A stretch of 64,000 nucleotides of DNA from an uncultured Spirochaetota bacterium (GTDB taxonomy: Bacteria; Spirochaetota; Spirochaetia; SZUA-6; Fen-1364). How positions within the stretch are numbered: position 1 is the stretch's first letter; each line of letters begins with the position of its first letter. The notes below the pieces were generated by a model, which was given only the letters and a program-made list of their open reading frames with translations, did no database searches and was not told the origin of the DNA. Where the stretch lies: NCBI GenBank assembly GCA_963733835.1, contig CAVTER010000004.1, positions 43,102 to 107,101 of the forward strand, written 5' to 3'. Positions 2,830-57,783 of this stretch are shown here, in pieces. Position numbers and translations under genes: made by a program.

Positions 2830-5553
<2,724 letters not shown>

Positions 5554-15161: not shown

Positions 15162-15676
15162 ATGAGCACAGCACTTCAGAAGCGTCCAATCGACGAGGTG
15201 ATTGCGAGCCACCCGCCCAACCGGGACCACCTGATCTCCATCCTGCAGGAGGTCCAGGGCGAGTATGGCTACCTCTCCCGCGACAGCATCAACAGGATCT
15301 CCGACTACCTGAAGCTGCCCTCGTCGAAGGTCTTCGGCGTGGCCACCTTCTACAACCAGTTCAAGCTGACCGCGCCGGGGAAGATCCAGATCCAGATCTG
15401 CCGGGGAACGGCCTGCCACGTGAAGGGATCGCTCAACCTGCTGGACGCCCTGATCACCGCGCTGGGCATCGAGGTCGGCCAGACGACCAGGGACGGGCTG
15501 TTCTCGCTCGAGACGGTCGCGTGCCTCGGGTGCTGCTCCATCGCTCCCGCGATGATGGTGAACGGGAGGTTCTTCGGCCGGCTCGACAAGAAGCAGGTCG
15601 AGGAGCTGGTCGACAAGTTCCGCGCCGCGGGCGGGGTCGACGGCGCTTCCGGGCCGAGGCCGGGGGGTGGAGGCAT
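15162..15676 (+). CDS. hydC: NuoE-like [2Fe-2S] subunit of an NADH-dependent [FeFe]-hydrogenase (HydC/HndA-like); no stop seen before the downstream HydB-like sequence
   Basis: MSTALQKRPIDEV...QICRGTACHVKGS...CLGCCSIAPAMMVNGRFFG is the NuoE/24-kDa 2Fe-2S motif. Upstream are a GGGGAGA RBS and an AT-rich promoter. A Gly-rich linker (GGVDGASGPRPGGGG) runs directly into the next domain in the same frame. Confidence 0.7.
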
Positions 15677-17512: not shown

Positions 17513-17525
17513 GGAGGCGACATCG

Positions 17526-19256
17526 ATGGTGAACCTGACGATCAACGACCGGAAGACCCTGCAGGCCGCCCCCGGGACGACGATCCTGGACGCGGCGACC
17601 GCCGCGGGCGAGCGAGATCCCCACCCTGTGCCACATCAAGGAGCTGTTCCCGAGCGGCGCCTGCCGCATGTGCGTGGTGGAGTGCAAGGGGCAGCCCGGC
17701 CTCATCCCCTCCTGCGCCTTCCCGGTCGAGGAGGGCATGGAGGTCGCAGACGCGCAGCCCGCGGGTCGTCGAACGCCCGCCGCACGATCATCCAGCTCCT
17801 GCTCGCGAGCCACCCCTTCGACTGCCTCACCTGCGCCGAAGAACGGCTACTGCGAGCTGCAGTCCCTGGCCTCGGAGTACGGCATCGACAGGGTGCCCTT
17901 CGAGGGCAAGACCCGCCACCACTACACCGACTTCTCCTCCCCCTCCATCATCCGCGAGCCGGACAAGTGCATCCTCTGCGGCCGCTGCGTGCGCATCTGC
18001 GAGGAGATCCAGGGCGTGGCGGCCATCGACTTCACCCGGCGCGGCTTCGACACCATGGTGCTGCCGCCCTTCGAGATGGACCTGAGCGAGACCACCTGCG
18101 TCAACTGCGGCCAGTGCACGCTCGCCTGCCCGACCGGCGCGCTGCACGAGGTGCGCGCCGTCGAGAAGGTGATCCAGGTGCTGCAGGAGGGCAAGAAGTA
18201 CGTCGTGGCCCAGGCCGCCCCCGCGATCCGCGTGTCGCTGGGCGACTTCTTCGGGCTGGCCCCCGGCGCCAACGTGACAGGCAAGGTCGCCGCGGCGCCT
18301 GCGGCGCATGGGCTTCCGCCAGGTCTTCGACACCGACTTCGCCGCCGACCTCACGATCATGGAGGAGGGCACGGAGCTGGTGCGCAGGATCACGGAGGGC
18401 GAAGAAGCTTCCGCTGTTCACCTCCTGCTGCCCTGCCTGGATCAAGTTCGCCGAGCACTACTACCCCGAGCTGCTCGCGAACATCTCCACCTGCAAGAGC
18501 CCGCAGGAGATGATGGGCGCCACCATCAAGAGTTACCTCGCGAAGAAGATGTCGATCGACCCGCGCGACATCTACGTGGTGTCGGTGATGCCCTGCACGG
18601 CCAAGAAGTACGAGGCGCTGCGGCCCGAGCTGTCGAAGGACGGCGTCACGGACGTGGACGCGGTGCTCACCACCCGCCAGTTCAACAGGATGATGCAGAT
18701 CTTCGGCATCACCTTCGAGAGCCTCCCCGAGGAGGAGTTCGACAAGCCCTTCGGCGCGCCCACGGGGTCGGGCGACATCTTCGCCGCCTCCGGCGGGGTC
18801 ATGGAGTCGGCCCTGCGCTCGGCCTACTACCTGCTCACGGGCAAGGACCTGGAGAAGCTGGACTTCGAGGCCGTGCGCGGCATGGCCGGGGTGAAGGAGG
18901 CCAGCGTGAAGGTGGGCGACCGCACCATCCGCGTTGCCATCGCCAACCGCCTGTCCAACGCACGGCAGATCGCCGACAGGGTGCGCGCGGGGGACTCGCC
19001 CTGGGAGTTCATCGAGGTCATGGCCTGCCCCGGCGGCTGCGCCGGCGGCGGCGGCCAGATGTACGGCTACGACCCGCAGAGGACCGAGCAGAGGATCAAG
19101 GCGATCTACGCCCTGGAGAAGAGCAGGTCGGTGCGCCAGTCGTACAAGAACCCGGCAGTCGCCTCCGTGTACAAGGAGTACTTCGGCGAGCCGGGCTCGC
19201 ACACGGCGCACGAGCTCCTGCACACGAGCTACGAGTCACGGCCCCAGAAGGGCTGA
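17526..19256 (+). CDS. hydA: [FeFe]-hydrogenase catalytic subunit (HydA/HndD), about 3 frame disruptions
   Basis: An N-terminal 2Fe-2S/4Fe-4S ferredoxin region is followed by H-cluster motifs L1 (TSCCPAW), L2 (MPCTAKKYE) and L3 (EVMACPGGCAGGGGQ) in the 17526..19256 frame. Parts of the N-terminus sit in frames 17668..18513 and 18308..19369. Confidence 0.8.
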   Translation: MVNLTINDRKTLQAAPGTTILDAATAAGERDPHPVPHQGAVPERRLPHVRGGVQGAARPHPLLRLPGRGGHGGRRRAARGSSNARRTIIQLLLASHPFDCLTCAEERLLRAAVPGLGVRHRQGALRGQDPPPLHRLLLPLHHPRAGQVHPLRPLRAHLRGDPGRGGHRLHPARLRHHGAAALRDGPERDHLRQLRPVHARLPDRRAARGARRREGDPGAAGGQEVRRGPGRPRDPRVAGRLLRAGPRRQRDRQGRRGACGAWASARSSTPTSPPTSRSWRRARSWCAGSRRAKKLPLFTSCCPAWIKFAEHYYPELLANISTCKSPQEMMGATIKSYLAKKMSIDPRDIYVVSVMPCTAKKYEALRPELSKDGVTDVDAVLTTRQFNRMMQIFGITFESLPEEEFDKPFGAPTGSGDIFAASGGVMESALRSAYYLLTGKDLEKLDFEAVRGMAGVKEASVKVGDRTIRVAIANRLSNARQIADRVRAGDSPWEFIEVMACPGGCAGGGGQMYGYDPQRTEQRIKAIYALEKSRSVRQSYKNPAVASVYKEYFGEPGSHTAHELLHTSYESRPQKG

Positions 19257-19284
19257 GGGAGGGGAGGACCCCGGGGGACGGGCC

Positions 19285-21352
19285 ATGGTGTCGGTCTACA
19301 CGGTCAGCGACACGTGCAAGAAGTGCTACTCGTGCGTGCGGTCCTGCCCGACAAAGGCCATCCAGGTGAAGGGCGGGCAGGCCGAGATCATCGAGGAGTT
19401 CTGCATCTCCTGCGGGTGGTGCGTGACCGCCTGCTCGCAGGGGGCCAAGCGCGTGCGCTCCTCCCTCGACCAGGTGCGCGCGCTGCTGGCGGGGGCCGGC
19501 AGCACCTACGCGCTGCTCGCACCCTCGTTCCCCGCGGCGTTCCTCGACACCCCGCCGCGCCAGCTTGTGGGCGCGCTGCGCGCTGTGGGCTTCGCCGGCG
19601 TGTTCGAGGTGGCATTCGGGGCCGACCTCGTCTCGTACGAGTACTACCGGCGGTTCCGCGCCATCGTGGAACGCTCCCCCGACGACTTCCTCATCTCCTC
19701 GCCCTGCCCCTCCGTGGTGCAGTACGTGGAGAAGATGGTGCCCGAGCTGGCCGGCCATCTCGCCCCCGTGGTCTCGCCCATGGAGGCCACGGCCCGGATG
19801 GTGAGGAGCAGGGTCGACCCGCGGGCGCAGCTCGTGTTCATCGGCCCCTGCGTGGCGAAAAAAGTCGAGGGGGACGGCGCTTCCGGCGCCTCGGGCGCTT
19901 CCGGCGCCGGTGTGGATGCCGTGCTGACCTTCGAGGAGCTGGTGGAGCTGTTCGCCGCGGCGGGGGTGGCACCCCCCCAGGCGGCGCCTGCCGACTTCAA
20001 CCCCCCGCACGCGAACCTCGGCAGGATCTACCCGGTCACCGGCGGGCTGCTCAAGGCAGCCTCGATCGACGCGGACATCCTCGAGAGCCCCGTCTACGTC
20101 GTGGAAGGGCCCGAGAGGGTGATGGACATGCTGCACGTGCTGTCCAACCGGGTGCGCACAGGCCAGAGGGTGAGCTACAGGCTGTTCGACCTCCTGTTCT
20201 GCGAGGGGTGCATCGGCGGCCCCTCGATGGTGAACGACCTCACCTTCTACGAGCGCAAGAAGTACGTGGTGCAGTACATGCATCACCAGCCCATGGCCCG
20301 CGACATCGAGGAGTGGGCCGAGGAACACGCCGAGTACCTCGACATCGACCTGTCCACGCGCTTCCACCCCGTGACGCGCGAGGAGGTGGCCGCCCCCGAG
20401 GAGGAGATCCGCAGGATCCTCTCCCAGACGGGAAAGCTCACCCCCGAGGACGAGCTGAACTGCGGTGCCTGCGGCTACCCCTCCTGCAGGGACAAGGCCC
20501 TCGCCGTGTACAGGGGCAAGGCCGAGGTGGAGATGTGCCTGCCCGTACCTCATCGCCCGGGTGGAGTCGGCGATGAAGGACCTCACGGCGAACCAGACCC
20601 GGCTCATCCAGGCGGAGAAGCTCGCCTCGATGGGCCAGATGGCGGCGGGGATCGCCCACGAGATCAACAACCCCCTCGGCGTCGTGCTCATGTACTCTCA
20701 CCTGCTGAAGGACGAGCTTCCCGAGGGCGCCCCGGGCAGGGCCGACGCGGACAGGATCATCGCGGAGGCCGAGCGCACGCAGAAGATCGTGCGCGGGATC
20801 CTGAACTTCGCGCGCGAGGAAAAGGTCGAGCGCAGGCCCACCGACATCAATGCGCTTCTCCGTGACAGCGTGACCGGGATCGCGGGAACTTCACAGAACG
20901 GGAAAATCCGTGTAGAGTGGGCTCTCGACGAACGCCTCGCCCCGCAGAACGTGGATGCGGGGCAGCTGCGCCAGGTCTTCGACAACATCGTGAAGAACGC
21001 GCGGGAGGCCATGCCCGACGGCGGGACGCTCCGCGTGTCGACGGAGGACGGGGAGGGGGAGTTCACGGTCCGCGTCGCGGACTCGGGTCCCGGCATCCCG
21101 GAGGAGAACCTGCCCAAGATGTTCTCTCCCTTCTTCACGACGAAGAAGGTGGGCAAGGGCACGGGCCTGGGCCTGTCCGTGTGCTACGGCATCGTGAAGA
21201 TGCACGGCGGGACCATCCAGGCCTCGAACAACCCCGAGGGCGGCGCGTGCTTCACCGTGCGCATCCGCCGCGTCGTTTCCGCGGCCAACGGGAAGGCGGC
21301 GCAGGCGGCAGTTTCGAAGGAGGACGGACGTGGCTCGAGTACTGATCGTTGA
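19285..21352 (+). CDS. Sensor histidine kinase whose input is a sensory [FeFe]-hydrogenase-like (HydS-type) domain: 2x[4Fe-4S] ferredoxin, degenerate H-domain, Cys4 cluster, HisKA and HATPase; one frameshift near 20540
   Basis: [22 protein letters not shown]...[11 protein letters not shown] is a 2x4Fe-4S region. Degenerate H-cluster motifs follow: ISSPCPSVV (versus TSCCPxW), [21 protein letters not shown]. There is a [12 protein letters not shown] linker and CGACGYPSC. After the frameshift come HisKA ([12 protein letters not shown]) and HATPase_c ([20 protein letters not shown]) in ORF 20465..21352. Confidence 0.75.
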
Positions 21353-21734
21353 CGACGACGCGGACCTCATCGCGGGGCAGCGGGCGTTCCTGGAATCAAG
21401 CGGCTACACCGTCGAGTCTGCCAACTCGATCGACGAGGGCCTCGCCCGGGCGAGCGAGTTCGCCCCCGACCTCATCCTGGCGGACCTCATGATGGAGCAC
21501 TACGACTCGGGATTCGTGTTCTGCAAGAAGGTGCGCGACCTCCCCGGGCTGGCGACGGTTCCCATCATCATGCAGACAGCCGCCCCCCGCAAGATCGGCT
21601 TCACCTTCGAGGGAAGCGCGGCACCGGGGCGGGAGTGGATGAAGGTGGACGAGGTGCTCACCAAGCCCGTTCCCCTCGAGCACCTGGTGGGCAAGATCGA
21701 GCAGCACCTGTCGGGCAAGGCCCGCCGTGCGTAG
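21330..21734 (+). CDS. Single-domain CheY-like response regulator
   Basis: [13 protein letters not shown]...DLILADLMME...TKP. Its start overlaps the end of the upstream kinase. Confidence 0.8.
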   Translation: MARVLIVDDDADLIAGQRAFLESSGYTVESANSIDEGLARASEFAPDLILADLMMEHYDSGFVFCKKVRDLPGLATVPIIMQTAAPRKIGFTFEGSAAPGREWMKVDEVLTKPVPLEHLVGKIEQHLSGKARRA

Positions 21735-21757
21735 GACGCGGTGCCGCGGGTGAGCTG

Positions 21758-23261
21758 ATGGACGGCGAGCGGCCCCCCCAGCCCAGCGCGGACGCCTCCG
21801 CGGAGCCGGTCCCGAGGGACCGCGAGCAGGTCCGGATTCTCGTCATCGACGACGAGGAGGGCATGCGCGAGGGCATGCGGCGGGTGCTGGAGCGGCGGGG
21901 TTTCGCCGTGCAGACCGCCCGCGACGGGGAGACCGCCATCCGCATGCTCGGCGAGGCCCCCTACGACCTGGCCCTCGTCGACCTGAAGATGCCCGGCATC
22001 GACGGGTTCAAGGTCACCGAGCACATCCGCCAGCGCTTCGGCGGCACGCATGGTGGTGGTCATCGTCTCGGCCCTCGCCACGGTGGAGGCGGCCGTGGAG
22101 GTGACCCAGCGCGGCGCCTTCGACTTCCTGGTCAAGCCGTTCACCCCCGACGACCTGCTGCAGGTCGTGAACAGGGCCGTGCAGCAGTGGCGCCTGATCC
22201 GCGAGCGCGAGAAGTACCTCTCCGAGCTGGCCACGGAGCGCAGCCTCTCCCACCAGATGATCTCCTCGATGCACGAGGGGGTGGTGGTGCTGAACGTGCG
22301 CCGCGAGCCGGTGCTGATGAACCCGCGGGCCGAGCACTTCCTGGGAAAGCGCTTCCGGGAGGGCCTGACCCTCGCGGAGCTGTTCACCGACCTGGACGCC
22401 AGCGCGGCGATCGAGGGGGTCCTCGACGCCGGGCCGCAGGCACCCGACAGGTCCGTGCAGGTGAGGGCGGGAGAGGCGATGCTCCAGGTGAGCGTGACGC
22501 CGCTCACCCGCGACGGGGCGGCCGGCGGGGCGATCGTGATCCTCACCGACGTCACGGCGAGCTGGAAGGCCGAGCAGGACAAGAACAGGTTCGTCTCCAT
22601 GGTGGCCCACGAGCTGAAGAGCCCGCTCTCGGCGATCATCAACTACATCAACGTCATCCTGACGGGGATGTTCGACAGGGACCCGGGGAAGATCCACGAG
22701 ATGCTCGACCGCTGCAAGGTGCGCGGCGAGGCGCTGCTGGACCTCGTGCGCGACCTGCTGTACATCAACGCGCGCGAGGTGGGAAAGGTCCAGCGCACGC
22801 TGGAAGACCTGGACCTGAAGGAGATCCTCGCGGCGCAGCTGGAGTTCTTCAAGGTCCAGGCGGACAAGAAGAAGCTGGTCACGGCCCTCGAGGCGCCGCC
22901 CGCCGCCTGCCCCGTGCACGCGGACAGGGGCGACATGGACAGGATCTTCATGAACCTCATCTCGAACGGCATCAAGTACAACCGGGACAAGGGCAGCCTC
23001 ACGGTCGCCGTGGCCGACGGCGGGGAGAGCTGGATCGTGTCCGTGTCGGACACCGGCATCGGGATGAGCGAGGCCGAGCGCGCAAACCTGTTCCAGGAGT
23101 TCTACAGGGTCAAGAGCGCGAAGACATCGGGAATCGCGGGCACGGGCCTGGGCCTTGCCACGGTGCACCGGGTGCTGGGCGAGTACAACGGCGCGATCGC
23201 CGTCGAGTCCAGGCCCGACGCGGGCTCCACCTTCCGCGTCACCTTCCCCAAGCGCGCATAG
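21758..23261 (+). CDS. Hybrid receiver-PAS-histidine kinase (REC, PAS, HisKA, HATPase_c); one frameshift near 22040
   Basis: The N-terminal receiver (RILVIDDEEGMREGMRR...DLALVDLKMPGIDG) continues after a shift in ORF 22050..23261 with FDFLVKPF, a PAS-like region, the H-box MVAHELKSPL, the N-box NLISNGIKY and G-boxes DTGIGM, GTGLGL. Confidence 0.75.
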
Positions 23262-39928: not shown

Positions 39929-41029
39929 GTGACATCGAGAGAGAGAGTGGCGGCCGCCTTCGCGCACCGCGACCCCGACAGGACGCCCCTGTTCGAGTAC
40001 GTGCTCCTGCCGCCCGTGGCCGGGCAGGTGCTGGGACGACCGTTCATCGAGTACCTGGGCGGCATGGAGCCGTGGCTGGCGGCTGCCGCCGAGCAGGGCT
40101 TCGAGCGGCTCCTCGGCTCCTACGCGCGCGACAGGGTGGAGATCGCCCGGCGGCTGGGCCACGACATGATCTGCCTGAGCCCCAACCCCGTGCCCGGGGC
40201 CGCCTACTCCTACGACCCCCTGTCCGAGATCGGGGCGCAGTTCACCGTCGCGGCCGAGGGTGACCCCGTGCAGCGGCTGGTGGAGCGCAACCGCAGGGTG
40301 GCCGAGACCATGCTGGGCGAGCTGCCCCGGGACAGCTACCTCGTGTACGACCTCGTGCGCGAGGAGATGAGGCGGCACGGCATGGACCTGCCCATCCTCG
40401 CACCCGCGTACTACCACGGCATCTGGACCGACGCCGACCTGATGCAGGTCATGGTCCTGGAGCCCGAGGTGGCGCGCGAGCACTTCCGCCTGGCCACGCG
40501 CAGGGCCCTTGCCGCGATCGACGACTACACCCGCCTGGGAATCGACTGCATCGGGATCGGCGGCGACTTTGCCGGGGTGCGCCTGCTCATCTCCCCCGAG
40601 TCCTACCGCCGGTTCATCGTCCCGGAGGTGGCAGCGTGCGCCCGTCGGGTGCGCGCCGGAGGGGCCCGGTCGGTGAACGCCTCGGACGGGAACCTGTGGC
40701 CGGTGCTGGACGATTTCCTGGATGGGTGCGAGGTGGACGCGTACCTCGAGATCGACATGAGCGCGGGCATGGACCTGGCCCGGCTGAAGGCGGCCTGGGG
40801 CGGGCGCATCACCTTCTTCGGCAACATGGACTGCGGGAAGATCCTGAGCTTCTCGACCCCCGAGGAGATCCGCGCCGTGACACTGTCCATCCTCGATGCG
40901 GGGTGGGGCGGGGGCGGGCACATCTTCACGGCGAGCAACGCCATCACGGCGAGCGTGCCGCTGGCCAACTACCTCGCCATGGTGAACGCATACAGGGAAA
41001 GGTTCGCCCTCGGGCCGCTGAGCCTCTGA
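39929..41029 (+). CDS. Uroporphyrinogen-decarboxylase (URO-D)-family protein (methyltransferase MtaA/CmuA-like)
   Basis: A 366-aa intact ORF with a URO-D-like TIM barrel (RTPLFEYVL...DCIGIGGDFAG...FFGNMDC). Confidence 0.6.
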   Translation: MTSRERVAAAFAHRDPDRTPLFEYVLLPPVAGQVLGRPFIEYLGGMEPWLAAAAEQGFERLLGSYARDRVEIARRLGHDMICLSPNPVPGAAYSYDPLSEIGAQFTVAAEGDPVQRLVERNRRVAETMLGELPRDSYLVYDLVREEMRRHGMDLPILAPAYYHGIWTDADLMQVMVLEPEVAREHFRLATRRALAAIDDYTRLGIDCIGIGGDFAGVRLLISPESYRRFIVPEVAACARRVRAGGARSVNASDGNLWPVLDDFLDGCEVDAYLEIDMSAGMDLARLKAAWGGRITFFGNMDCGKILSFSTPEEIRAVTLSILDAGWGGGGHIFTASNAITASVPLANYLAMVNAYRERFALGPLSL

Positions 41030-41089: not shown

Positions 41090-42145
41090 TCAACGGCTGC
41101 CGTGCGGCTGGCTGCCCGCCGCGGCATGTTCCTCGCAGGCCCTCACCATTGCCCGCAGGTTCTCCAGGGGCGTCATGCGCGGCACGCCGCAGCCCGGCGA
41201 GAGAATCACGCCCCGCTCCATGCCCGGCTCCTCGAGGATGCGCCGGCAGGCTGCCGTGACCTGGTCCGGGCGCGCCTGCAGCAGGAACGTGGTGTCGAGG
41301 TTGCCCTTGAGCGCGATCCTCCCGCCCAGCAGCTGCCGTGCCAGCGCCATGGGCACCTTCGAGTCCACCTCGAAGCCCTGGAAGGGCACGCCGGCCAGGA
41401 AGTGCAGGAGGTGGTCGGTCCTGCCGCAGATGTGGATCCACAGGTCGCAGTCCCTGCCCGCGAGCGCGTCGATCGCCTTCTCCTGCCAGGGAAGGACGAA
41501 CTTCCGGTAGTCCGCGGGCGAGACGAGGCTGGCTGTCGCGTCGCCGAACTGGATGGCGTGTACGCCCGTGGCGATCATCGCTTTTCCATACGCGACGACG
41601 ACCTCGGTGCAGAAGGAGAGAAGCTCGCGCAGGTCCGCCTCGTTCTCCGTCGAGAGGTCCATGAAGAAGTCCTGCGCTCCCCGCAGCACGGCGGCGAGGC
41701 TGAAGGGGCCCGTGTCGATGTTGGCCTGGATGTAGTACCTGTCCCCGGCGGCCGCCACGACCCTGCGGGCTGCATCGAGGAGGGTTGTCATGCCGGGGGC
41801 GCTCGCGGGGTCGGGCACGCGGAGCTTGCGGAAGTCCCTCACCGAGTCAAGCAGCACCGTCCTGCTGAACGACTCGTCGTCGTCGGGGAAGGTGAGCTCC
41901 CCGCCCAGCGCCTGGTGGTAGACCCAGTTGTCGCGCGAGACGTAGATGCCGTCGAAGCCGCACATCTGGCGGGCTTTCAGCAGCGTGTCGGCCATGACCG
42001 CGGAGTCGGTCATGTACCTCCCCTGCGGCACCCCCGTGAGCTGGCAGGCAGGAGCCAGCAGGATCGGGAAGGTGGGGACCCTGTCGACAGGCTCGCCGCG
42101 CACCGCCGCGCGCGTCCGCTGCAGCCCCGTCATCTCACTGGACAT
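41090..42145 (-). CDS. Uroporphyrinogen-decarboxylase (URO-D)-family protein, second paralog
   Basis: MSSEMTGLQRTRAAVRGEPVDRVPTFPILL...ICGRTDHLL...ILSPGCGVP is a URO-D/MtaA-like fold. Confidence 0.6.
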   Translation of the reverse strand: MSSEMTGLQRTRAAVRGEPVDRVPTFPILLAPACQLTGVPQGRYMTDSAVMADTLLKARQMCGFDGIYVSRDNWVYHQALGGELTFPDDDESFSRTVLLDSVRDFRKLRVPDPASAPGMTTLLDAARRVVAAAGDRYYIQANIDTGPFSLAAVLRGAQDFFMDLSTENEADLRELLSFCTEVVVAYGKAMIATGVHAIQFGDATASLVSPADYRKFVLPWQEKAIDALAGRDCDLWIHICGRTDHLLHFLAGVPFQGFEVDSKVPMALARQLLGGRIALKGNLDTTFLLQARPDQVTAACRRILEEPGMERGVILSPGCGVPRMTPLENLRAMVRACEEHAAAGSQPHGSR

Positions 42146-42554
42146 CGAACCCCTCCTTCCGCGCGGCCTCCGCCAGCCGCTCATCGGAGGTGAGCAACGC
42201 AAGCGTCGCCGGGTTCTCCGACGAGGCTGCGAGAGCAGCAGCGAGCTGCAAGGCGTCCGCGGCCCTCAGCGGGTGCACCCGCAGCAGCCGCATCGCCCTC
42301 GCCCTGAGCTGGCTGGTCGGCAGCACCTCGTGCCAGCTCTCCGCGAGCGACTCGAGCGCGGAGAGAGCGTGAGAAAGCTGCTGGTCATCCAGGCCGCCCT
42401 CCCGGCGAAGACGATTGAGGGCCGACGCGCATTCCAGCCGGCACGCCCACCAGACCGTCATCTGCGGGTCGGAGAGCAGCAGTGACTTCCGGCCCTCGGT
42501 CTGCTGCTCGGGGACGAGCAGGGGGATGACCGCCGAGGAGTCCCAGAACCTCAT
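42135..42554 (-). CDS. vapC: PIN-domain toxin (VapC-like)
   Basis: MRFWDSSAVIPLLVPEQ... has PIN acidic residues. It overlaps the upstream antitoxin gene. Confidence 0.7.
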   Translation of the reverse strand: MRFWDSSAVIPLLVPEQQTEGRKSLLLSDPQMTVWWACRLECASALNRLRREGGLDDQQLSHALSALESLAESWHEVLPTSQLRARAMRLLRVHPLRAADALQLAAALAASSENPATLALLTSDERLAEAARKEGFDVQ

Positions 42555-42850
42555 CGGCCGGCCTCGCGTTCCTCGAGAAGGGCCCGCAGGGCGCTTGCCC
42601 CTTCCGGGAGCTTCGGCATGCGCCGGTTCACGAAGGCCCGGGCATCGAGAGGCTTGCGCGGCGGGGCGAGCACACCGCGCCTGACCAGGTCAGCCACCAG
42701 CTCACTGCCCATGCCGGGATCGCTGTTGACCGGTTCCAGCCTCGCGACGGGCGTGTCCCTGTCGAGGATCAGCACGGTCTCGCCCCGCTTGACCTCTTCT
42801 ATCAATCGACTGAGCGTGTTCTTCGCAACAGATATTGTAGCTTTCTTCAT
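42551..42850 (-). CDS. Phd/YefM-type antitoxin
   Basis: MKKATISVAKNTLSRLIEEVKRGETVLILDRDTPVARLEP is the Phd/YefM fold. A TATAGCTATA palindrome lies in its promoter region. Confidence 0.7.
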   Translation of the reverse strand: MKKATISVAKNTLSRLIEEVKRGETVLILDRDTPVARLEPVNSDPGMGSELVADLVRRGVLAPPRKPLDARAFVNRRMPKLPEGASALRALLEEREAGR

Positions 42851-42922
42851 ATGGCTATTATAGCTATATCTGGGAGCGTCGTCAATTCCGTGGCTGTCGG
42901 GCGGGAGTCTTCTCCGGCCCTC

Positions 42923-44160
42923 TCATCCCAGCCACCTCTGCATCCACTCGAAGGCCTCCGCCTGCATGGGCAGGTCGAACTTGTGCGGGCCCGGGTAAAG
43001 GGAGATGCGGAACGCGTCGGGTGCGCCCGCCTTTGCGTAGGTCTCGGCCAGGATCTCGTCCTGCCCGCTCGATCTCCCCGCGGGTGTACAGCGGGTCTTC
43101 CGTGGTGGACAGCACCAGGCTGGGAAGCGGGGCGCGCACGGCCAGCATCTCGGGGAAGTCCATCTGCCCCGGGATGCCGGGCGGGTAGATCATCCACGTG
43201 TGCGTGTAGCTCACGTTCCTGCAGAAGTCACGCCACGTGGTCATGAAGCCGACCACCACGGTGCAGCGCACCCTGTCGTCTGCCCCGGCCAGGAAGACGC
43301 TCCTCATGCCGCCCCCGGAAAGGCCGCCGCAGCCCAGCCGGCGAGCCGTCCACGTCGGGACGGGAGGCGAGGTACGAGAGAGCCGCGGAGTCTTCTGCGA
43401 GCGTGACACCCGGCCACGTCGTGCCCGCGCAGAGCAGCGACTTGGCAACGATGGTCTCGTGCTGGCCGGCAAAGGCGTTGTACCTCGCGATGGCAGCCTC
43501 CGGCTCGTCTGTGGGGACCTCGTAGCGCAGGACGGGATCAGTCGAGGCGAGGTCCGCGGGCAGCATCTCGCGCTGGGCTTCGGGGGCTGCCATGAGCTTC
43601 TCCACCGCGAAGGGAGGGAGGCCCGAGGCGAGCACCTTCCTGCTCTCGAAGGGGAACACGTCGTGGACGAGCACCGCGAACCCGCGCCGGGCGATCTCGT
43701 TGGCCCACGCCCTTCCGCCGTAGTACTCGGCCTGGTGGCGGCTCATCATGGCGTGCTGCGGGGAGGCAGTGCGGGAGATCTTCCGCTTGCCGAAGAACTT
43801 GTTCGCTGCGTGGTCGTGCAGCGCGAGCACGCCGGGGAGCTTTCCCGTCGCCCCCGCGGGCTTCAGGAACACGGCCTGGGTGCGCGGTCCCCAGGGCAGC
43901 TGCCACGAGAGCTCCTCGACCGCGAGTCCTTCGTGCAGGTACGCCGCGTGCACCTGCACCTCGGCGGCACCGACCGGGCTCCCGTCCGGCTGGACGGGAC
44001 AGCGGAAGCAGCGGGCAAGCTCCTCCCGCGCTGCCTTCTTCCACGCCCCGAGGTCCGTCCAGCGCGGGTTTCGGAACGACAGGCTGCCCGGCCCCTCGGC
44101 AGCCCGGGCCGCTGCCCACTCCCCGTAGGCGCCCAGCATGGTGAGCGGTGACTGTGCCAT
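42923..44160 (-). CDS. Alpha/beta hydrolase (acetyl-xylan-esterase / dienelactone-hydrolase-like), 2 frameshifts
   Basis: The N-terminal part is in ORF 43228..44160 (LALHDHAANKFFGKRKI...), the middle part in 42882..43472 (SGGGMRSVFLAGADDRVRCTVVVGF, a nucleophile region), and the C-terminus (QDEILAETYAKAGAPDAFRISLYPGPHKFDLPMQAEAFEWMQRWLG) in a third frame. Confidence 0.6.
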
Positions 44161-48823: not shown

Positions 48824-49897
48824 ATGCCCGGCAGCGTGTTCGGCAGGATCCTCACAGTCGCGACCTTCGGCGAGAGCCACGGTCCCGCGGTGGGCGCGGT
48901 GCTCGACGGCGTGCCCCCGGGGCTGCCCCTGGCTGTCGCGGACATCCAGCGCGAGCTGGACAGGAGGCGGCCGGGGCAGAGCAGCGTGACCACCGAGCGC
49001 GCCGAGAGCGACACGGTCGAAGTACTCTCCGGCGTGTTCGAGGGCAGGACCACGGGCACACCCATCGCGCTCCTGGTCAGGAACTCCTCTGCCCGGAGCA
49101 GCGACTACGAGTCGATAAAGGACGTGTTCCGGCCCGGGCACGCGGACTACACCTACGCCGCCAAGTACGGCATCCGCGACTGGCGCGGCGGCGGGCGCTC
49201 GTCGGGCCGCGAGACGGCAGCCCGCGTGGCTGCCGGCGCGGTCGCCAGGGTCTTCCTGTCCCGGCGCGGAATCGCCGTGCGCGGCCACGCGGTGGAGATC
49301 GCGGGCGTGCGGGCGCGGAGCTTCGACCCGGCCGAGATCGAGCGAAACCCCGTGCGCTCGGCCGATCCTGCCGCGGCTGCCCTCATGATGGAGAGGATCG
49401 AGGAGGCGAAGAAGGCAGGAGACTCGGTGGGCGGCATCGCCGAGGTCGTGGTGAGCGGCTGCCCTGCCGGCCTGGGGGACCCCGTGTTCGACAAGCTGGA
49501 GGCCCTGCTCGCACACGCTGTCATGTCGATCGGCGGGGCCCGCGCGGTCGAGGTGGGCGCGGGTGTCGAGGCTGCCCGGATGCGCGGTTCCCAGTACAAT
49601 GACAGCCTCTTCATGGACGCCGGCAGGGTCGCGGCCCGGACCAACAACGCGGGCGGCATTGCCGGGGGAATTTCGACCGGCGGCGAAATCGTTGTCCGGG
49701 CAGCGTTCCGGCCCCCTGCCTCGATCAGCCTCGCGCAGCAATCGGTAAACACGACGGGCGAGCAGGTGACCGTCGAGGTGCGGGGCAGGCACGACCCCTG
49801 CATCGTGCCCAGGGCGATCCCCGTGCTGGAGGCGATGGCGGCGCTTGTGATCGCCGACTGCCTGCTCGTCCAGGATTCACTCGGCCCCGCCCGTTGA
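48824..49897 (+). CDS. aroC: Chorismate synthase
   Basis: FGRILTVATFGESHGPAVGAVLDGVPPGL, GRSSGRETAARVAAG and RHDPCIVPRA are chorismate synthase signatures. Confidence 0.9.
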   Translation: MPGSVFGRILTVATFGESHGPAVGAVLDGVPPGLPLAVADIQRELDRRRPGQSSVTTERAESDTVEVLSGVFEGRTTGTPIALLVRNSSARSSDYESIKDVFRPGHADYTYAAKYGIRDWRGGGRSSGRETAARVAAGAVARVFLSRRGIAVRGHAVEIAGVRARSFDPAEIERNPVRSADPAAAALMMERIEEAKKAGDSVGGIAEVVVSGCPAGLGDPVFDKLEALLAHAVMSIGGARAVEVGAGVEAARMRGSQYNDSLFMDAGRVAARTNNAGGIAGGISTGGEIVVRAAFRPPASISLAQQSVNTTGEQVTVEVRGRHDPCIVPRAIPVLEAMAALVIADCLLVQDSLGPAR

Positions 49898-49957
49898 CTT
49901 CACGGCCGTTGACAGCCCCTCCCCGCCGGTATTAACTCAGCGTGGAACGGGAGACCT

Positions 49958-50419
49958 ATGAAGCTCACCCAGTACATCAAGCCGGAGTGTTTCGTGCCCC
50001 TCCTCGCCGAGAAGACCCGGGAGGAGGCGCTTCGCCGCATGGTCCGCGTGCTCGCGGAAAAGGGGATCGTAAAGAACGAGGATGACATCTTCGCGCACCT
50101 TCTGGAGCGCGAGAGCATCCAGAGCACGGCCGTGGGAAACGGCATTGCCATCCCCCACTGCTTCAGCGACCAGGTGGCCGACCTCGTCATCACCGTGGCC
50201 CGGGCCCCGCAGGGCATCGGGTTCGACTCCTTCGACGGCGCCCCCACGCGGGTCATCTTTCTCCTGCTGGGGAACCGCGACGGCCACGGCCTGCACCTGA
50301 AGGCGCTGGCGCGCATCGCGCGCCTTATCAAGAGCACCGCGTTCATCGAGAAGATCATCGCCGCCGACACGGTCGAAGCCATGGTGCGCGCCTTCGAGGA
50401 AGAGGAGATGAAGATCTGA
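49958..50419 (+). CDS. PTS EIIA type-2 domain protein (PtsN / EIIA-Ntr-like regulatory protein)
   Basis: AIPHC (active-site His) and RVIFLLLGN are typical of EIIA(Fru/Ntr). No EIIB or EIIC is nearby. Confidence 0.7.
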   Translation: MKLTQYIKPECFVPLLAEKTREEALRRMVRVLAEKGIVKNEDDIFAHLLERESIQSTAVGNGIAIPHCFSDQVADLVITVARAPQGIGFDSFDGAPTRVIFLLLGNRDGHGLHLKALARIARLIKSTAFIEKIIAADTVEAMVRAFEEEEMKI

Positions 50420-50757
50420 TGAAGCTCCTGTTCATCGTGCTCAACTCCAACGACAAGCTCGAAGAGGTGCTCGAGGGCCTGATCGAGGTCGGGGTGACCG
50501 GCGCCACCGTCGTGGACTCGGTGGGGATGGGCCGGATCATCGAAAACGTGCCGCTGTTCGCCGGGATGCGAAACGTTTTCCGCTCGGCAAAGCCGCGCAA
50601 CAACATCATCTTCTCGGCCATCCGCACCAGCCAGGCCGCCGAGACCATGGCCGTGCTCGACAAGATCCTCGGCTGCTCGGTGCCGGGCAAGGGCGCCGGC
50701 ATCGCCTTCCTCGTTCCCATCGACACGGTGATCGGGGTCTGCAAGGATCCCGACTGA
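50419..50757 (+). CDS. PII-like (GlnB-fold) small regulatory protein
   Basis: A 112-aa ORF: MKLLFIVLNSNDKLEEVLEGLIEVGVTGATVVDSVGMGR. A ferredoxin-like beta-alpha-beta fold with a Gly-rich T-loop-like segment. Confidence 0.5.
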   Translation: MKLLFIVLNSNDKLEEVLEGLIEVGVTGATVVDSVGMGRIIENVPLFAGMRNVFRSAKPRNNIIFSAIRTSQAAETMAVLDKILGCSVPGKGAGIAFLVPIDTVIGVCKDPD

Positions 50758-50762
50758 GCCGG

Positions 50763-52245
50763 GTGTTCGACGTCGCTGTCATCGGCGCCGGGGTGAGCGG
50801 CGCGGCGATCGCGCGGCTGCTTGCCGCGCACGCCGTGACCGTGGCCCTGGTGGAGAGGGCAGCCGACGTCTCCTTCGGCGTCTCCAAGGCCAACTCCGGC
50901 ATCATCCACGCCGCCTTCCACCACAAGGGCACGACCCTCAAGGCGCGCCTGGAGGCCGCGGGAAACCCGATGTTCGACCGCCTGCAGGCGGAGCTGGGAT
51001 TCCCGTTTCGCAGGGTGGGCATCGTCGTGGCAGCCTTCTCCGAGGAGGAGATGAAGACCGTCGAGGTCCTGCACGAGCGGGGAGTGGAGAACGGCTCGCC
51101 GGGCATCGAGATCGTGGGCCGCGACAGGCTGCTCGCCCTCGAGCCGAAGCTCAGCCCTGACGTGCGCGGGGGGCTTTTCGCGCCCAGCGGCGGGATCATC
51201 GAGCCGTACAGGTTCGTCTTCAGCCTGGTGGAGAACGCCGTGGCCAACGGCGTGCAGCTGTTCAGGAACTGGAAGGCCTCCTCGGCGCACCAGGTGGACG
51301 GGGGCTGGCAGATCGAGTCCGACCGGGACGAGAGGATCCTCGCCCGCTGGGTGGTGAACGCCGCGGGCCTGCGCGCGGACGAGGTCTCGGCCGCCTTCGG
51401 CGCCGAGCGCTACACGATCACCCCGAGGAAGGGCGAGGAGTACATCCTCGAGAGGGGCAGCGCGGGGTTCCCCTCGCGCGTGATCTTCCCCGTCCCCACG
51501 AAGAACTCCAAGGGAATGCTCGTGATCCCCACGGTGGAAGGCACGATGATGCTCGGCCCCACCGCCGAGGAGATCGAGGACAAGTCCGACGTGGCCACCA
51601 CGCCCGACAATCTCGAGCGCGTGTTCGACCTTGCCGCCCGCATGGTGCCGGCAGTGTCGCGGCGCGACATCATCACCTCCTTCGCCGGCCTTCGGCCCAC
51701 GCTGCCGGGCGACGACTTCTATGTCGAACGCTCCCGCGAGGCGCCGCGCTTCGTGCAGGTGGCAGGCATCCAGTCGCCCGGGCCTCACGGCCTCGCCCGC
51801 CATCGCCGAGCGCGTGCTGGACCTGCTGCGGGAAGATGGCCTCGCGCTTCGGCCGCGGGCGGACTTCGACCCCTTCGTGCGACACCCCGCGCGCATCCGC
51901 GAGGTGCCGCCGGGGGACCGGGAGGCACTCGCCCGCCTGGTGGCCGAGGACCCTTCGCGCGGTCACGTGGTCTGCAGGTGCGAGACGGTGAGCGAGGCCG
52001 AGGTGGTCGAGGCGATCAGGAAGGGCCACACGACGCTGGACGGGATCAAGTTCTACACGCGCGCGGGCCAGGGCAGGTGCCAGGGCGGGTTCTGCACCTA
52101 CCGGATCATGCAGATCCTGGCGCGCGAGACGGGCATGCCCCTGGAGGCAATCACCAAGAGGGGCGGGGAGAGCGTGCTCGTGGTGGGGCGCATCGGCGCC
52201 GGCCGGCCGCCGACCCGTCTGCCGGTCCCGGGAGGCCCGCGTGAG
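50763..52245 (+). CDS. GlpA-like FAD-dependent oxidoreductase with a C-terminal BFD-like [2Fe-2S] domain; one or more frameshifts near 51790
   Basis: MFDVAVIGAGVSGAAIARLLA (GxGxxG), DAO-family motifs, then after a shift CRCETVSEAEVVEAIRKGHTTLDGIKFYTRAGQGRCQGGFC, a BFD-like 2Fe-2S domain. Confidence 0.7.
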
Positions 52246-53516
52246 CCTCGAGCGCAGCTACGACGCCGTGGTGATCGGCGGCGGGAGCGCGGGCATGGCC
52301 GCGGCCCTTGCCGTGCGCGAGGCAGGGCTCACCGCCGCCATCGTGGAGCGCGAGCCGTTCCTCGGCGGCATCCTCCTGCAGTGCATCCACAGCGGGTTCG
52401 GCATCCACGAGTTCGGCGAGGACCTCACGGGCCCCGAGTACGCCGAGCGGTTCATCGCCAGGGTGGTCGGGGCGGGCATCGACTGCTTCCTGGACACCAC
52501 GGTCATGGAGGTCCTCCCCCGGGACGGCAGGCGCGAAATTGTTGCCTGCTCCAGCCGCCACGGGGTGGTGCGCCTGTCGGCCCGGGCGGTGATCCTCGCC
52601 ATGGGCTGCCGGGAGAGAAACAGGGGCAACGTGGCCATCGCGGGCACAAGGCCCGCCGGGATCTTCACGGCAGGCCTGGCCCAGCGCCTTGTGAACATCG
52701 AGGGCTGCATCCCCGGCAGGCGCGTGGTGATCGTGGGCTCGGGCGACATCGGCCTGATCATGGCGCGCAGGCTCACCCTGGTGGGCTGCACGGTCCTCGG
52801 CGGTCGTCGAGATCCAGCCGTACCCCTCGGGCCTCGTGCGCAACCTCGTGCAGTGCCTGAACGACTTCTCCATCCCTCTGTACCTCGGCCACGTGGTCTC
52901 GAGGATCTCGGGGAAGGACAGGGTGGAGTCGGTGGAGATCGCGCCCCTGGTGGAGGGGCGACCCGACACGGGGCGGGCCTTCCGCATCGACTGCGACACG
53001 GTGCTCCTGTCGGTGGGGCTCATCCCCGAGAACGAGCTGTCGCGCGCGGCGGGAGTGCCCATCAACGGCGACACGAATGGTCCCGTTGTCGACGCCGACC
53101 TGATGACGGGCGTGGAGGGCATCTTCGCCTGCGGCAACGTGCTGCACGTGCACGACCTGGTGGACTTCGCCTCGGAGGAGTCGCGCCGCTGCGGCCAGCA
53201 CGCCGCGGCCTGGCTGCGTTTCCGCGGAAACGCAGCACGCCCAGCCGGACCCGGGCCGAAGGTCTCGGCCGGCGCCAATGTCCGCTACGTGGTACCGGGC
53301 GCGTCGGCGCCGGGCAGGGAGAACGTGCTGTACCTGCGGCCCATGGTGGTGAAGAACAACGCGGTGCTCGAGGTGACCGTGGACGGCGAGGGCATCAGGA
53401 AGCGGAAGCTCGCCCACGTGCAGCCCTCTGAGATGATCCGCATCGCGTTGAAGGCCGGCGACATCCCCGCCGCCGACCCCGCGAAGCCCAACCTGATGGA
53501 GGTGTCCATCCGGTGA
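52241..53516 (+). CDS. FAD/NAD(P)-binding pyridine nucleotide-disulfide oxidoreductase-family protein; one frameshift near 52800
   Basis: A GTG start after GGAGG: VSLERSYDAVVIGGGSAGMAAAL. A second Rossmann (RVVIVGSGDIGLIMARRL) follows, and the sequence continues in another frame (ACGNVLHVHDLVDFASEE). Confidence 0.7.
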
Positions 53517-53938
53517 GCGCGACCCCCGACGCCGCAGCAACGGCCGGCGCACCCGGCTGCGAAATGGTCTGCATAGCCTGCCCGCTGGGCTGCAGGCTCA
53601 CTGTCGGCAGGTCCGCTTCCGGCGAGCTCACGGTGACAGGAAACCGCTGCCCCAAGGGCGTGACCTATGCCCAGGAGGAGACCCTCTCCCCGAAGCGCAT
53701 CGTGACCGCGGTGGTCCGCACTGACTCCGAGGCTTTCCCCTATGCTCCCGTGCGCACCGACGTGCCGCTTCCCCGGGCGCTGGCCGCCGGCCTGCTGCAG
53801 GACCTGTACGCGCGAACCGTCGCGCTGCCCGTCCGCATGGGTGCAGTGCTGATCGACGACGTGGCCGGCACCGGGGTGAAGGTCGTCTTCACGCGGAACC
53901 TTCCACCCGCGGAAGTCCCGTCCGCCGGTCGGCGCTAG
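53513..53938 (+). CDS. DUF1667 domain protein
   Basis: CIACPLGCRLTV...GNRCPKG are the Cys motifs characteristic of DUF1667. Its start overlaps the upstream stop. Confidence 0.65.
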   Translation: MSATPDAAATAGAPGCEMVCIACPLGCRLTVGRSASGELTVTGNRCPKGVTYAQEETLSPKRIVTAVVRTDSEAFPYAPVRTDVPLPRALAAGLLQDLYARTVALPVRMGAVLIDDVAGTGVKVVFTRNLPPAEVPSAGRR

Positions 53939-56344: not shown

Positions 56345-57783
56345 CTACCGAAGAGCCCATCTGGAGGAGGCTGCTGGAAGGATCGCGCAGCTCAGGACCA
56401 CCCACGAGCGATCCCTCAGGCGGCCCGCTCCGGCCAGCGTCAGGGGAGATGCCGAAAACCTCGAAATGAGCTTGTCCTTCAGGGACGGGAAGATCGTGCG
56501 CGAGAACACCTCGATGATCCTGTCTCGATCCGGGTCTTGGCTTCCTCGTACCAGCCCGCCTCCTCGATCCTCACGAACAGCTCGTAGTCCATGAGCAGCT
56601 GATGATGATGCCCGATCGCCCCGGGGGCGCCGGGCGGGATCGCGCAGGACGGGAATGGAGACTTCAAATGTGTTCAGATCGCAGAACTCATCCAGCCACC
56701 CGAAAACCTGTTCCTTCGTGATGGTGCCCCAGTGTCGAGGATGTTCTTCAGTTGGACTTGAAGGTTTCGCCCAGTCCCTGCCTCGAGGGGGTATAGAACA
56801 GGTGCGCCGAGGTGATCCCGGAATACCTCTCCCACGGCTCATCGACGGCGAGGAATACGCGTGAACACCGACTCGGCCCCTTTGGAGGACAGGATCTTCT
56901 CCTTCTCCCTTTGATCCTCGCCCGGGTCTTTGCAGGAAGGTCACGGTGTCGGCGATGGAGTAGAGTCTTTCAGGTCCGCGGCCCATATCAGCTTCCCGTA
57001 GCCGTACTGGCTCCCCGGCTGTCTTCCACGACCCGCGGGCCCGGGAACACTTCACGATCTCGGTGCCCGTCATGACTTCGCCACCAAGCTCGCCGATCTT
57101 CTCGCGGATCCTGCCCGTGAATGCGCCGACGCCGCCGACGGGATACAGGTAGTCGTTGTAGAGCGCGAAATAGCTGAGGGTGAAGAATGCCGGCGTCCCC
57201 TTGAAGAAGTGCTGGCTGAAGACGTCCCGCAGGGGCCCGTGCGTGATGATCTTCTGCAGGAACGCCTCCATCGGGACGTTCAGCTTGCCGATCCTGGACA
57301 GCGTGTGAACGAACTTGAAAAGCCACGCGAACACCGAGGGGATCATCCGCAGGCTCTTCGGCGATTTCGAAAACAGCGGGTTGTCCGCACCGTACAGCAC
57401 CTTGAGGTCGTTGATGACCTTGCGGATCTCGTCGGCAAGGGCATCGACCTCGGGAACGCTGCCGGGATACAGCTCCTTCAGCAGCGCGGAGTATTCCAGT
57501 AGGCTGTCCTCTCCCGTCACCGTGAAGACGTGGTCCTCGATTCCCAGCGACACCGGGATAGGCAAGAATTGCACACGATGCCCAGCATCGGGGCATGGCG
57601 GCACGAGCGGAGTTACAAGGGCCCGTGCGCCGCCTCGAAATGGAAACCGTCCGTGGAGAACGAGTTCATAGGCCGACCGCAGGTGTCGTTCTTCCCGATC
57701 AACAGCGTGTCCTTCTTCGACGTGCACAGGTAGACGGCTGCCGTAGTTCCGTGCTCCCGTCCCGCGACCACGTACTCGCTCAT
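56345..57783 (-). pseudogene. Phytoene-desaturase (CrtI)-family FAD oxidoreductase, multiply frameshifted
   Basis: The N-terminus (MSEYVVAG...IGKNDTCGRPMNSFSTDGFHFEAAHGPL) is in ORF 57613..57966, the middle (YPVGGVGAFTGRIREKIGELGGEVMTGTEIVK) in 56345..57727, and the C-terminal motif (FGWLDEFCDLNTFEVSIPVLRDP) in another frame. Confidence 0.5.

Follow-up and report, generated by a model that had tools for sequence, protein, structure and literature searches.

An EIIA/PII-like gene pair with two kinds of neighbourhood: antiporter genes in many lineages and a putative glycerol-3-phosphate dehydrogenase triad in a clade of Spirochaetota

Genes of the locus and the region upstream of the pair

The window analysed here comprises 64,000 nucleotides (64 kb) of contig CAVTER010000004.1, from a Spirochaetota genome of 70% G+C and of a peat or soil type. 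It contains five consecutive genes on the forward strand: those for a stand-alone EIIA protein of the phosphotransferase system (PTS) and for a small PII-like protein, followed by a triad encoding a GlpTk-type FAD dehydrogenase, a NOX-like flavoprotein and a DUF1667 protein (Table 1). Autonomous and widespread as a two-gene module, the EIIA/PII-like pair, and not the enzyme, forms the unexplored part of the locus. On the same strand the string begins with unk152 and aroC, and runs through the promoter-like motif, EIIA, the PII-like gene, the dehydrogenase and the NOX-like gene to DUF1667; it is bounded on the left by a histidine kinase gene on the opposite strand and on the right by a convergent DUF1801 gene. 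The arrangement of the five genes is beyond chance, as 12 of 21 related species-level loci have the string with intact genes and with differing flanks. Pfam searches agree with the initial annotation in finding the five genes at the coordinates given, all on the forward strand and with the domains assigned to them, and the triad does lie directly behind the EIIA and PII-fold genes, with only 5 nt between the PII-like gene and the dehydrogenase and with overlapping junctions elsewhere.

Table 1. Features of the EIIA/PII-like locus, with positions in the window
Feature	Position	Strand	Evidence or remark
unk152, ~150 aa, N-terminal hydrophobic helix	48364-48810	+	no Pfam match; tblastn 50% identity to L006 orthologue
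aroC (chorismate synthase)	48824-49897	+	Pfam Chorismate_synt E = 6e-137
promoter-like motif	49909-49937	+	TTGACA-N15/16-TAT(T/C)NACT, 3' end 20 nt before EIIA start codon
EIIA, PTS type 2, PtsN-like, stand-alone	49958-50419	+	Pfam PTS_EIIA_2 E = 7e-32
PII-like protein, 112 aa, divergent subfamily	50419-50757	+	Pfam P-II 23.4 bits; AF2 + Foldseek
GlpTk-type FAD dehydrogenase, DAO + BFD [2Fe-2S]	50763-52244	+	DAO E = 4e-63; Fer2_BFD E = 8e-14
NOX-like NAD(P)/FAD flavoprotein, Pyr_redox_2	52241-53516	+	Pfam Pyr_redox_2 halves in two frames
DUF1667 ('MOX') small subunit	53513-53938	+	Pfam DUF1667 E = 1e-20

The stop codon of EIIA and the start codon of the PII-like gene have one nucleotide in common, in the sequence TGATG, and GTGA overlaps are found at both the dehydrogenase/NOX-like and the NOX-like/DUF1667 junctions. 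The gap in front of the dehydrogenase ranges from about 5 to 25 nt in relatives, as calculated from gene coordinates. Upstream of the EIIA gene lies a motif of the TTGACA-N15-TATTNACT type, followed by a GGGAG ribosome-binding site. It was found by eye from lined-up intergenic regions and then tested: it occurs once in the 64 kb, where 0.00 occurrences are expected from shuffled sequences, it is absent upstream of any other window gene, and one copy is present in each of 29 loci of the spirochaete clade, always some 10-95 nt in front of the EIIA start. For a sigma-70 promoter this spacer is short; TTGACA-N17/18-T(T/C)NACT is an alternative reading of the motif, which could instead be an operator. 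A generic promoter scan called no promoter, the motif being missed owing to its short spacer.

No terminator-like site was detected on the forward strand between 48000 and 54400, and the two found on the reverse strand are at chance level. Given the short gaps between the genes, the lack of such a site on the coding strand and the position of the sole conserved motif in front of EIIA, it is very probable that EIIA, the PII-like gene and, where present, the triad form one transcription unit. An Rfam scan of the entire window at gathering scores returned zero RNA families, hence a riboswitch or leader RNA does not explain the cluster.

Two of the genes in the triad are interrupted in the window, which the initial annotation overlooked. 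Alignment with the intact relative L009, at 79% nucleotide identity, places a 1-nt insertion at around 51780 in the dehydrogenase frame, where the window has GGG and L009 has GG, and a second at around 52799 in the NOX-like frame, where there is one additional G within GGCGG. The DAO and BFD domains are accordingly read in successive frames, and the N- and C-terminal halves of the Pyr_redox_2 domain are likewise split. At its 3' end (52199-52244) the dehydrogenase gene has 29 bases more than that of L009, and a further frame change is needed to reach the stop codon: the BFD frame is free of stops until 52860, and the TGA at 52242 belongs to the original frame. A fusion of the dehydrogenase and NOX proteins, as in protists, was considered as an explanation of the missing in-frame stop and was dropped, being unsupported by any relative; another indel is likelier.

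Identity of the encoded proteins

The predicted phosphorylation site of the EIIA-like protein, His67, lies in the sequence GNGIAIPH and aligns with the active-site histidine of PtsN; the best solved relatives are the PtsN proteins of N. meningitidis (2a0j) and E. coli (1a6j). The protein scores 69.6 bits against the PtsN model TIGR01419, not reaching the cut-off of 138.7, and 91.2 bits against the model for the IIA domain of fruA, which is above the PtsN score yet below the cut-off of 103.5. Its gene is located outside the rpoN-hpf-ptsN-rapZ-npr neighbourhood, being flanked by aroC and the PII-like gene, and the open reading frames (ORFs) of the window that were scanned have no EI, HPr or RpoN domain. 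In E. coli, PtsN controls transporters of potassium and other cations; in particular, its unphosphorylated form inhibits YcgO, a K+/H+ antiporter of the CPA1 family of cation/proton antiporters (CPA) (PMC11808508; review PMC13104625). The EIIA-like protein resembles E. coli PtsN (EIIA-Ntr) in being stand-alone, in having the phospho-histidine motif and, in most lineages, in being linked to genes for CPA antiporters; it differs in falling under the equivalog cut-off, in not belonging to an rpoN operon, in being coupled to a PII-like partner, which is absent from PtsN systems, and, within the spirochaete clade, in having no adjacent antiporter gene.

The Pfam P-II score of the second protein is under the gathering score of 25, and the hits of its homologues are flagged as 'weak'. 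The initial annotation had called it a PII-fold protein and suggested structural modelling, which bears out the fold: an AlphaFold2 (AF2) model (pLDDT 77) has a twofold beta-alpha-beta, ferredoxin-like architecture, and its top Foldseek matches are canonical PII proteins, with E ~1e-5 and TM scores of 0.55-0.6. PotN, a PII-like protein of Lentilactobacillus hilgardii (7o4x), is among the matches. In a profile alignment to the solved GlnK of E. coli (2gnk), Q39 is replaced by I, Y51 by N or K, K90 by I, R101 by an invariant G and R103 by C or K, whilst K58 is variable; among the canonical PII features compared, the B-loop glycines alone are retained. Since the residues for ATP, 2-oxoglutarate and modification are not conserved, sequence and model together point to a member of the PII superfamily that is not a sensor of the GlnB/GlnK type. 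The T-loop region has a sequence of its own, VP[IL]F.G.R..F....P.N, which is near-invariant across phyla. There are 228 close homologues, and a profile of four non-spirochaete proteins retrieves a family of 2444 clusters at 90% identity. What lies beside the PII-like gene is EIIA, together with antiporter genes of the CPA family or with aroC and the triad, and not amtB, glnA or nif.

The triad was described in the initial annotation as functionally uncharacterised, a view that does not hold up against published work. The 'GlpTk' family of glycerol-3-phosphate (G3P) dehydrogenases was named by Schmerling et al. (bioRxiv 2024; Commun Biol 2025, PMC11962113), who include anaerobic bacteria such as T. 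maritima and C. perfringens among the organisms with members; its genes are always followed by those for NOX, an NADH-oxidase-type flavoprotein, and for DUF1667, or 'molybdopterin oxidoreductase' (MOX) (PMC11962113). In T. kodakarensis the catalytic GlpTk gene is TK1393 (PMC11962113), and the GlpTk-NOX-MOX proteins form a soluble complex in vitro according to Koga et al. (2019, J Biosci Bioeng 127:679), as summarised in PMC11962113; hence this type of G3P dehydrogenase has, by that summary, been reconstituted. The corresponding parts are fused in Giardia (Lalle 2015). The triad of Pseudoclostridium thermosuccinogenes is flanked by glpP and glpK. The partner genes of T. kodakarensis are presumably TK1392 and TK1391.

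The best NCBIfam model for the dehydrogenase is the type 2 G3P oxidase, with 253 bits against a cut-off of 460, followed by L-2-hydroxyglutarate (L-2-HG) oxidase, and the best match in the PDB is GlpO of M. pneumoniae (MpGlpO; 4x9m), which aligns over the full domain with E = 3.5e-45. The histidine of SGIIH, the lysine of NSKG and the arginine of AGLRP align with His51, Lys258 and Arg320 of MpGlpO and are conserved; His51 is the catalytic histidine, common to L-2-hydroxyglutarate dehydrogenase (L2HGDH). Elkhal and co-workers are said to have concluded in 2015 that the lysine and arginine of this GlpO contact the phosphate. The NOX-like protein is a generic flavoprotein with two dinucleotide-binding domains, its relatives in the PDB being NfnA, TrxR, CoA-disulfide reductase and NADH oxidase. 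DUF1667 has four cysteines that are invariant in family alignments (C20, C23, C27 and C46); the family amounts to 2138 clusters at 50% identity, and its sole solved member related to the window protein is CPE0013 of C. perfringens (2jov). Weak matches to PH1363 (PDB 1y56) were obtained with the BFD region and with part of the NOX-like protein, the partner chain of that structure being labelled as a sarcosine oxidase. We take 1y56 to be the L-proline dehydrogenase complex of P. horikoshii.

By its architecture, the triad appears to be a G3P dehydrogenase of the GlpTk-NOX-MOX type with predicted activity on G3P, the substrate being assigned through homology. It has in common with that of T. kodakarensis the gene order, a DAO + BFD dehydrogenase, a flavoprotein of the pyridine-nucleotide-disulfide type and DUF1667, as well as its predicted solubility, a membrane anchor being absent; it differs in lacking a nearby glycerol kinase, facilitator or antiterminator and in its placement behind the EIIA/PII-like pair. 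Proline dehydrogenase, HcnABC and heterotetrameric sarcosine oxidase likewise combine a DAO-type flavoprotein with a Pyr_redox flavoprotein and a small cysteine-rich or 2Fe-2S element. However, the catalytic subunit encoded in the window is far nearer to the G3P oxidase (E = 3.5e-45) than to the chain of 1y56 labelled as sarcosine oxidase (E = 3e-11). The triad itself is ordinary, one more bacterial member of a type characterised in Thermococcus.

Conservation of the pair and of the triad

When the GTDB species representatives were scanned with patterns from an alignment of the PII-like protein, 25 loci were recovered, 21 of which belong to one clade of Spirochaetota from peat, fen, soil and sediment. 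All 21 have the order aroC-EIIA-PII, and unk152 precedes aroC in every clade locus that reaches far enough, L012 being cut within aroC. An example of an unk152 orthologue is L006:7965-8423; the gene is absent beside the pair outside the clade. The triad, by contrast, varies: 12 of these loci have it and nine are without. In loci without it, fabH starts 14-134 nt after the PII-like gene, whereas in triad-bearing loci with fabH nearby this distance is 3048-3215 nt; hence the triad is a clean indel of ~3 kb, an optional cargo between the PII-like gene and fabH. In most clade loci (such as L003, L006, L034 and L036) a convergent fabH, and then fabD-fabG-fabF, follow the PII-like gene or DUF1667, but no fabH lies within 10 kb in the sub-clade to which the window belongs. 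A neighbour-joining tree of aroC, EIIA and PII places the loci without the triad in a large subclade, in L017, which is nested among triad-bearers, and in the deep branch L022, implying at least two independent events of gain or loss. L012 (JBEKWU010000244.1, 4.3 kb), labelled as Bryobacteraceae, is near-identical, in both sequence and gene order, to the Spirochaetia locus L011 from the same SPRUCE peat project, and is probably mis-binned.

The remaining four loci of the scan, from genomes of Aminicenantales, Eubacteriales, Myxococcales and Planctomycetia, keep the EIIA-PII pair, with a PII identity of 43-55%. Both aroC and the triad are absent from them, and the pair instead abuts two membrane proteins of the Na_H_Exchanger family; the order EIIA-PII-CPA-CPA was found by profile search on four long Aminicenantes-like contigs. 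The EIIA of the Myxococcales metagenome-assembled genome (MAG; L032:9540-10001) has Ser-Tyr in place of Pro-His, reading GQGVAVSY where the others have GxGIAxPH. It appears from this sequence to be a naturally non-phosphorylatable variant, which is still paired with PII-like and CPA genes.

A scan of metagenomes, drawn with two peptide patterns, added 80 loci with a G+C content of 33-67%. EIIA is directly upstream of the PII-like gene in 64 of the 69 that could be assessed, the commonest spacing being a 1-nt overlap (47 of these 64), and genes for CPA-type Na+/H+ exchangers are adjacent to the PII-like gene in 76 of the 78 assessable for this. Neither the triad nor aroC was found at any of the 80 PII-like loci. 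The most distant PII-like proteins, those of L122, L123, L127, L128 and L129 (about 36-49% identity), have no EIIA upstream and abut one CPA gene; the similarly distant L125 also abuts a single CPA gene, but lies at a contig edge where EIIA is not assessable. This distribution suggests that the link between the PII-like protein and antiporters is older than that with EIIA.

The pair is thus autonomous, as all 21 clade loci have aroC-EIIA-PII, only 12 of them have the triad, and elsewhere the pair stands in an antiporter context. Its home is a CPA antiporter operon, in which it forms a four-gene unit with two CPA-family proteins. In the spirochaete clade it appears to have moved away from the antiporter genes, and in about half of the species to head an operon with the GlpTk-type dehydrogenase.

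The triad was also traced outside the clade, in a thin sample (n = 6) consisting of four records of a plasmid collection and two contig look-ups: R. albus, Vescimonas, Acetoanaerobium, Fusobacterium, an MAG of Anaerolineales and one unassigned MAG. None of the six has EIIA or PII beside it, and three adjoin glpP, glpP-glpF-glpK or a gene for glycerophosphodiesterase (GDPD). At least two of the records look like chromosomes filed as plasmids: L044 (NZ_CP154629.1, Acetoanaerobium noterae, 2.6 Mb) and L045 (NZ_CP084075.1, Fusobacterium vincentii, 2.1 Mb), which are labelled as plasmids, have housekeeping-type loci and are almost unannotated.

These surveys bear on the suggestion, made in the initial annotation, that pair and triad belong together. 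The pairing is not a general property of the triad, as the six triads outside the clade lack it, nor of the EIIA and PII-like genes, since nine of the 21 clade species and all 80 metagenome loci have them without the triad. What survives of the link is a very probable co-transcription, indicated by the 5-nt gap, the lack of a terminator and the sole motif upstream of EIIA. The contrary outcome, of genes that are merely co-oriented, separately transcribed and not kept together elsewhere, was encountered in half: the spacing favours a single unit, whilst the pair is indeed missing beside each of the six outside triads.

Possible roles of the pair and of the triad

We lean towards the reading that pair and enzyme are linked in the clade at the level of operon co-expression, with no obligatory circuit of contacts between the proteins. 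EIIA, the PII-like gene and the triad would be transcribed together from the motif upstream of EIIA, so that the enzyme is co-expressed with the pair. The EIIA protein would be phosphorylated on His67 by a regulatory PTS and thereby report the state of phosphoenolpyruvate (PEP) and pyruvate, that is of carbon and energy, and would act with a presumably trimeric PII-like partner that binds some ligand in a manner other than the canonical one of ATP and 2-oxoglutarate. The primary, ancestral targets of the pair would be cation/proton antiporters. In the enzyme, GlpTk would oxidise G3P to dihydroxyacetone phosphate (DHAP) at its FAD, and the electrons may then reach the FAD of the NOX-like protein by way of the BFD [2Fe-2S] cluster and the four-cysteine centre of DUF1667, to be handed on to NAD(P)+ or to some other soluble acceptor. 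The proposal of the initial annotation that the enzyme is under nitrogen-PTS and PII-type signalling stays a possibility; it is not a finding, as the PII-like protein is without the canonical residues for ATP, 2-oxoglutarate and nitrogen sensing.

PII-type proteins are known to gate transporters, in the pairs GlnK-AmtB and SbtB-SbtA, and an antiporter as the target fits these precedents as well as that of PtsN and YcgO. The PII-like protein has in common with GlnK and SbtB a ferredoxin-like PII fold of ~110 aa, a long T-loop region conserved within the family and, in 76 of 78 loci, a gene beside one for a membrane transporter. It differs from them in being without the conserved residues for ATP, ADP, 2-oxoglutarate and T-loop modification, in having a pair of CPA-family proteins as its presumed partner, and in the co-encoded EIIA. 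A further-reaching idea is that the pair is an undescribed, translationally coupled switch, which in many anaerobic lineages combines PTS state with a small-molecule signal to gate paired CPA antiporters, and which in the spirochaete clade has been re-targeted or extended to the G3P dehydrogenase of its operon; we offer this as speculation, and doubt that it would hold in full.

Several observations sit uneasily with a reading in which the antiporters are the ancestral targets and the triad is optional cargo that is merely co-expressed. Wherever the triad is present, across deep branches of the clade, it stands immediately behind the PII-like gene, a placement more persistent than a neutral hitch-hiker requires. 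A tblastn search with CPA proteins against the window and all spirochaete loci gave no homologue within 10 kb of the pair, and the target of the pair in this clade could be the triad. The metagenome sample is biased by the patterns used to draw it and may over-represent a few sediment lineages. Homologues of GlpK, GlpF and GlpP are absent from the window and from all spirochaete loci by tblastn, as are genes for GDPD, EI and HPr from the 64 kb and the clade loci, so that both the assignment of G3P and the phosphate donor of EIIA are deduced from homology; co-transcription, in turn, is read from spacing only.

The first of these observations would be explained if the EIIA-like and PII-like proteins bound the G3P dehydrogenase complex and gated its activity by PTS phosphorylation and a PII ligand, as a dedicated circuit. 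The tight gaps, the common promoter-like motif, the constant position of the triad in deep branches and the want of an antiporter nearby in spirochaetes all speak for such an arrangement, and both PtsN and PII proteins have metabolic enzymes among their known binding partners. Control of glycerol catabolism by the PTS offers a precedent: EIIA-Glc inhibits GlpK in E. coli and HPr~P phosphorylates it in Firmicutes, so that a PTS component is tied to the glycerol and G3P pathway with the logic that direct gating needs. In those systems, however, the target is a kinase and not a dehydrogenase, the effector is either EIIA-Glc, which is of another fold, or HPr, and there is no PII-like protein. Nine clade species keep the pair without the triad, which has been gained or lost in at least two independent events; no triad outside the clade has the pair, and the other 80 PII-like loci are linked to antiporters instead. 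A dedicated circuit consequently seems unlikely. It is more doubtful still that the pair serves its constant neighbours in the clade, either the shikimate pathway through aroC or the synthesis of fatty acids and phospholipids through fabH-fabD-fabG-fabF, with the triad irrelevant to its function. The shikimate pathway consumes PEP, canonical PII binds BCCP and G3P is the backbone of phospholipids, and by analogy a link of the pair with lipid synthesis is conceivable; moreover aroC lies upstream in all 21 loci, and fabH directly downstream in most, or behind the triad when that is present. Nevertheless, a separate promoter-like motif for EIIA lies behind aroC, in no other lineage do aroC and the fab genes adjoin the pair, the sub-clade of the window has no fabH within 10 kb, and adjacency within a clade can be inherited synteny, all of which makes regulation of these neighbours very improbable. 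A functional link between aroC, whose product needs reduced flavin, and the NOX-like protein was considered separately and dropped, because aroC keeps its position in nine species without the triad.

The two other alternatives concern the enzyme. It may oxidise a different substrate, such as L-2-HG, another 2-hydroxy acid or, in the manner of proline dehydrogenase or HcnABC, an amino acid. The absence of glycerol and G3P genes near the triad in every clade locus would accord with this, as would the shortfall against the type 2 G3P oxidase model with L-2-HG oxidase in second place, the catalytic histidine common to L2HGDH and the weak matches of the BFD region and part of the NOX-like protein to PH1363. 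Yet by far the closest solved relative, a genuine G3P oxidase, is matched over the full domain with its lysine and arginine kept; the same three-gene architecture has been demonstrated to act on G3P in T. kodakarensis; and homologous triads, with 37-60% identity in DUF1667, adjoin glpP, glpFK or GDPD genes. We consequently regard another substrate as distinctly unlikely, and hold to the prediction of G3P.

It might also be supposed that the triad is decaying, with real frameshifts and a truly missing stop codon, such that the dehydrogenase and NOX-like genes are pseudogenes; three frame problems fall within 3.2 kb, and elsewhere in the clade there are lineages that have lost the triad. Against this, the first insertion lengthens a run of G and the second puts an extra G into GGCGG, and the shifted frames remain open and are 64% identical to their orthologues. 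Among the clade loci, breaks are found, at differing positions, only in contigs named MFD or ERZ2503..., which from their names we take to be long-read assemblies, and in none of the other MAG loci; the near-identical contigs L003, with split genes, and L005, with intact ones, differ in these frame breaks alone. Segmentation by codon-position G+C, moreover, reveals abutting frame switches on the same strand throughout the window, housekeeping genes included, with split genes at, for example, 1347-2521 (-), 3331-4715 (-), 15189-17506 (+), 17839-19235 (+), 21342-23252 (+), 42138-44082 (-) and 56345-57727 (-). In this the window resembles a long-read assembly that was left unpolished, with about one indel every 1-3 kb, and given these switches any ORF-based annotation of the source contig will be fragmented throughout. 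On the grounds of the open and conserved frames, the differing positions of the breaks, the contrast between L003 and L005 and the window-wide switches, the insertions at ~51780 and ~52799 are almost certainly errors of long-read assembly and not signs of gene decay, which we consider scarcely credible. Intact orthologues of the dehydrogenase have 478-510 aa, and those of the NOX-like protein, at 417 aa, are unbroken in short-read assemblies.

Of wider interest than the enzyme, the EIIA/PII-like/CPA module appears to be built from known parts in an undescribed combination: no description of it was found in the searchable literature, including that on PII-like proteins and antiporters, and a 2026 review of PTS-Ntr nowhere mentions PII. 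If the two proteins do act together, they would be a physical meeting point of the regulatory PTS and the PII signalling families, and the single case of PtsN inhibiting a K+/H+ antiporter in E. coli would widen into a general system that is hard-wired genetically. Meanwhile, the spirochaete operon provides a natural experiment, in which the same pair exists with and without a dehydrogenase.

Elsewhere in the window, a block of genes at 15189-21325 (+) encodes an [FeFe] hydrogenase of the HydC/HydB/HydA type, which is of the electron-bifurcating kind. Next in it come a gene for a hydrogenase-like sensor with a fused histidine kinase (Fe_hyd_lg_C + FeS + HisKA/HATPase) and, after that, genes for response regulators and kinases; in L006 and L036, too, this hydrogenase/sensor-kinase block lies upstream of aroC-EIIA-PII. 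The organism is, to judge from its bifurcating-type hydrogenase, an anaerobe, which makes O2 an improbable electron acceptor for the triad. Two divergent genes of the URO-D family, at 39947-41026 (+) and 41132-42136 (-), lie beside those for a sugar ABC transporter and a ROK regulator; proteins of this family are, in anaerobes, often methyltransferases rather than haem enzymes.

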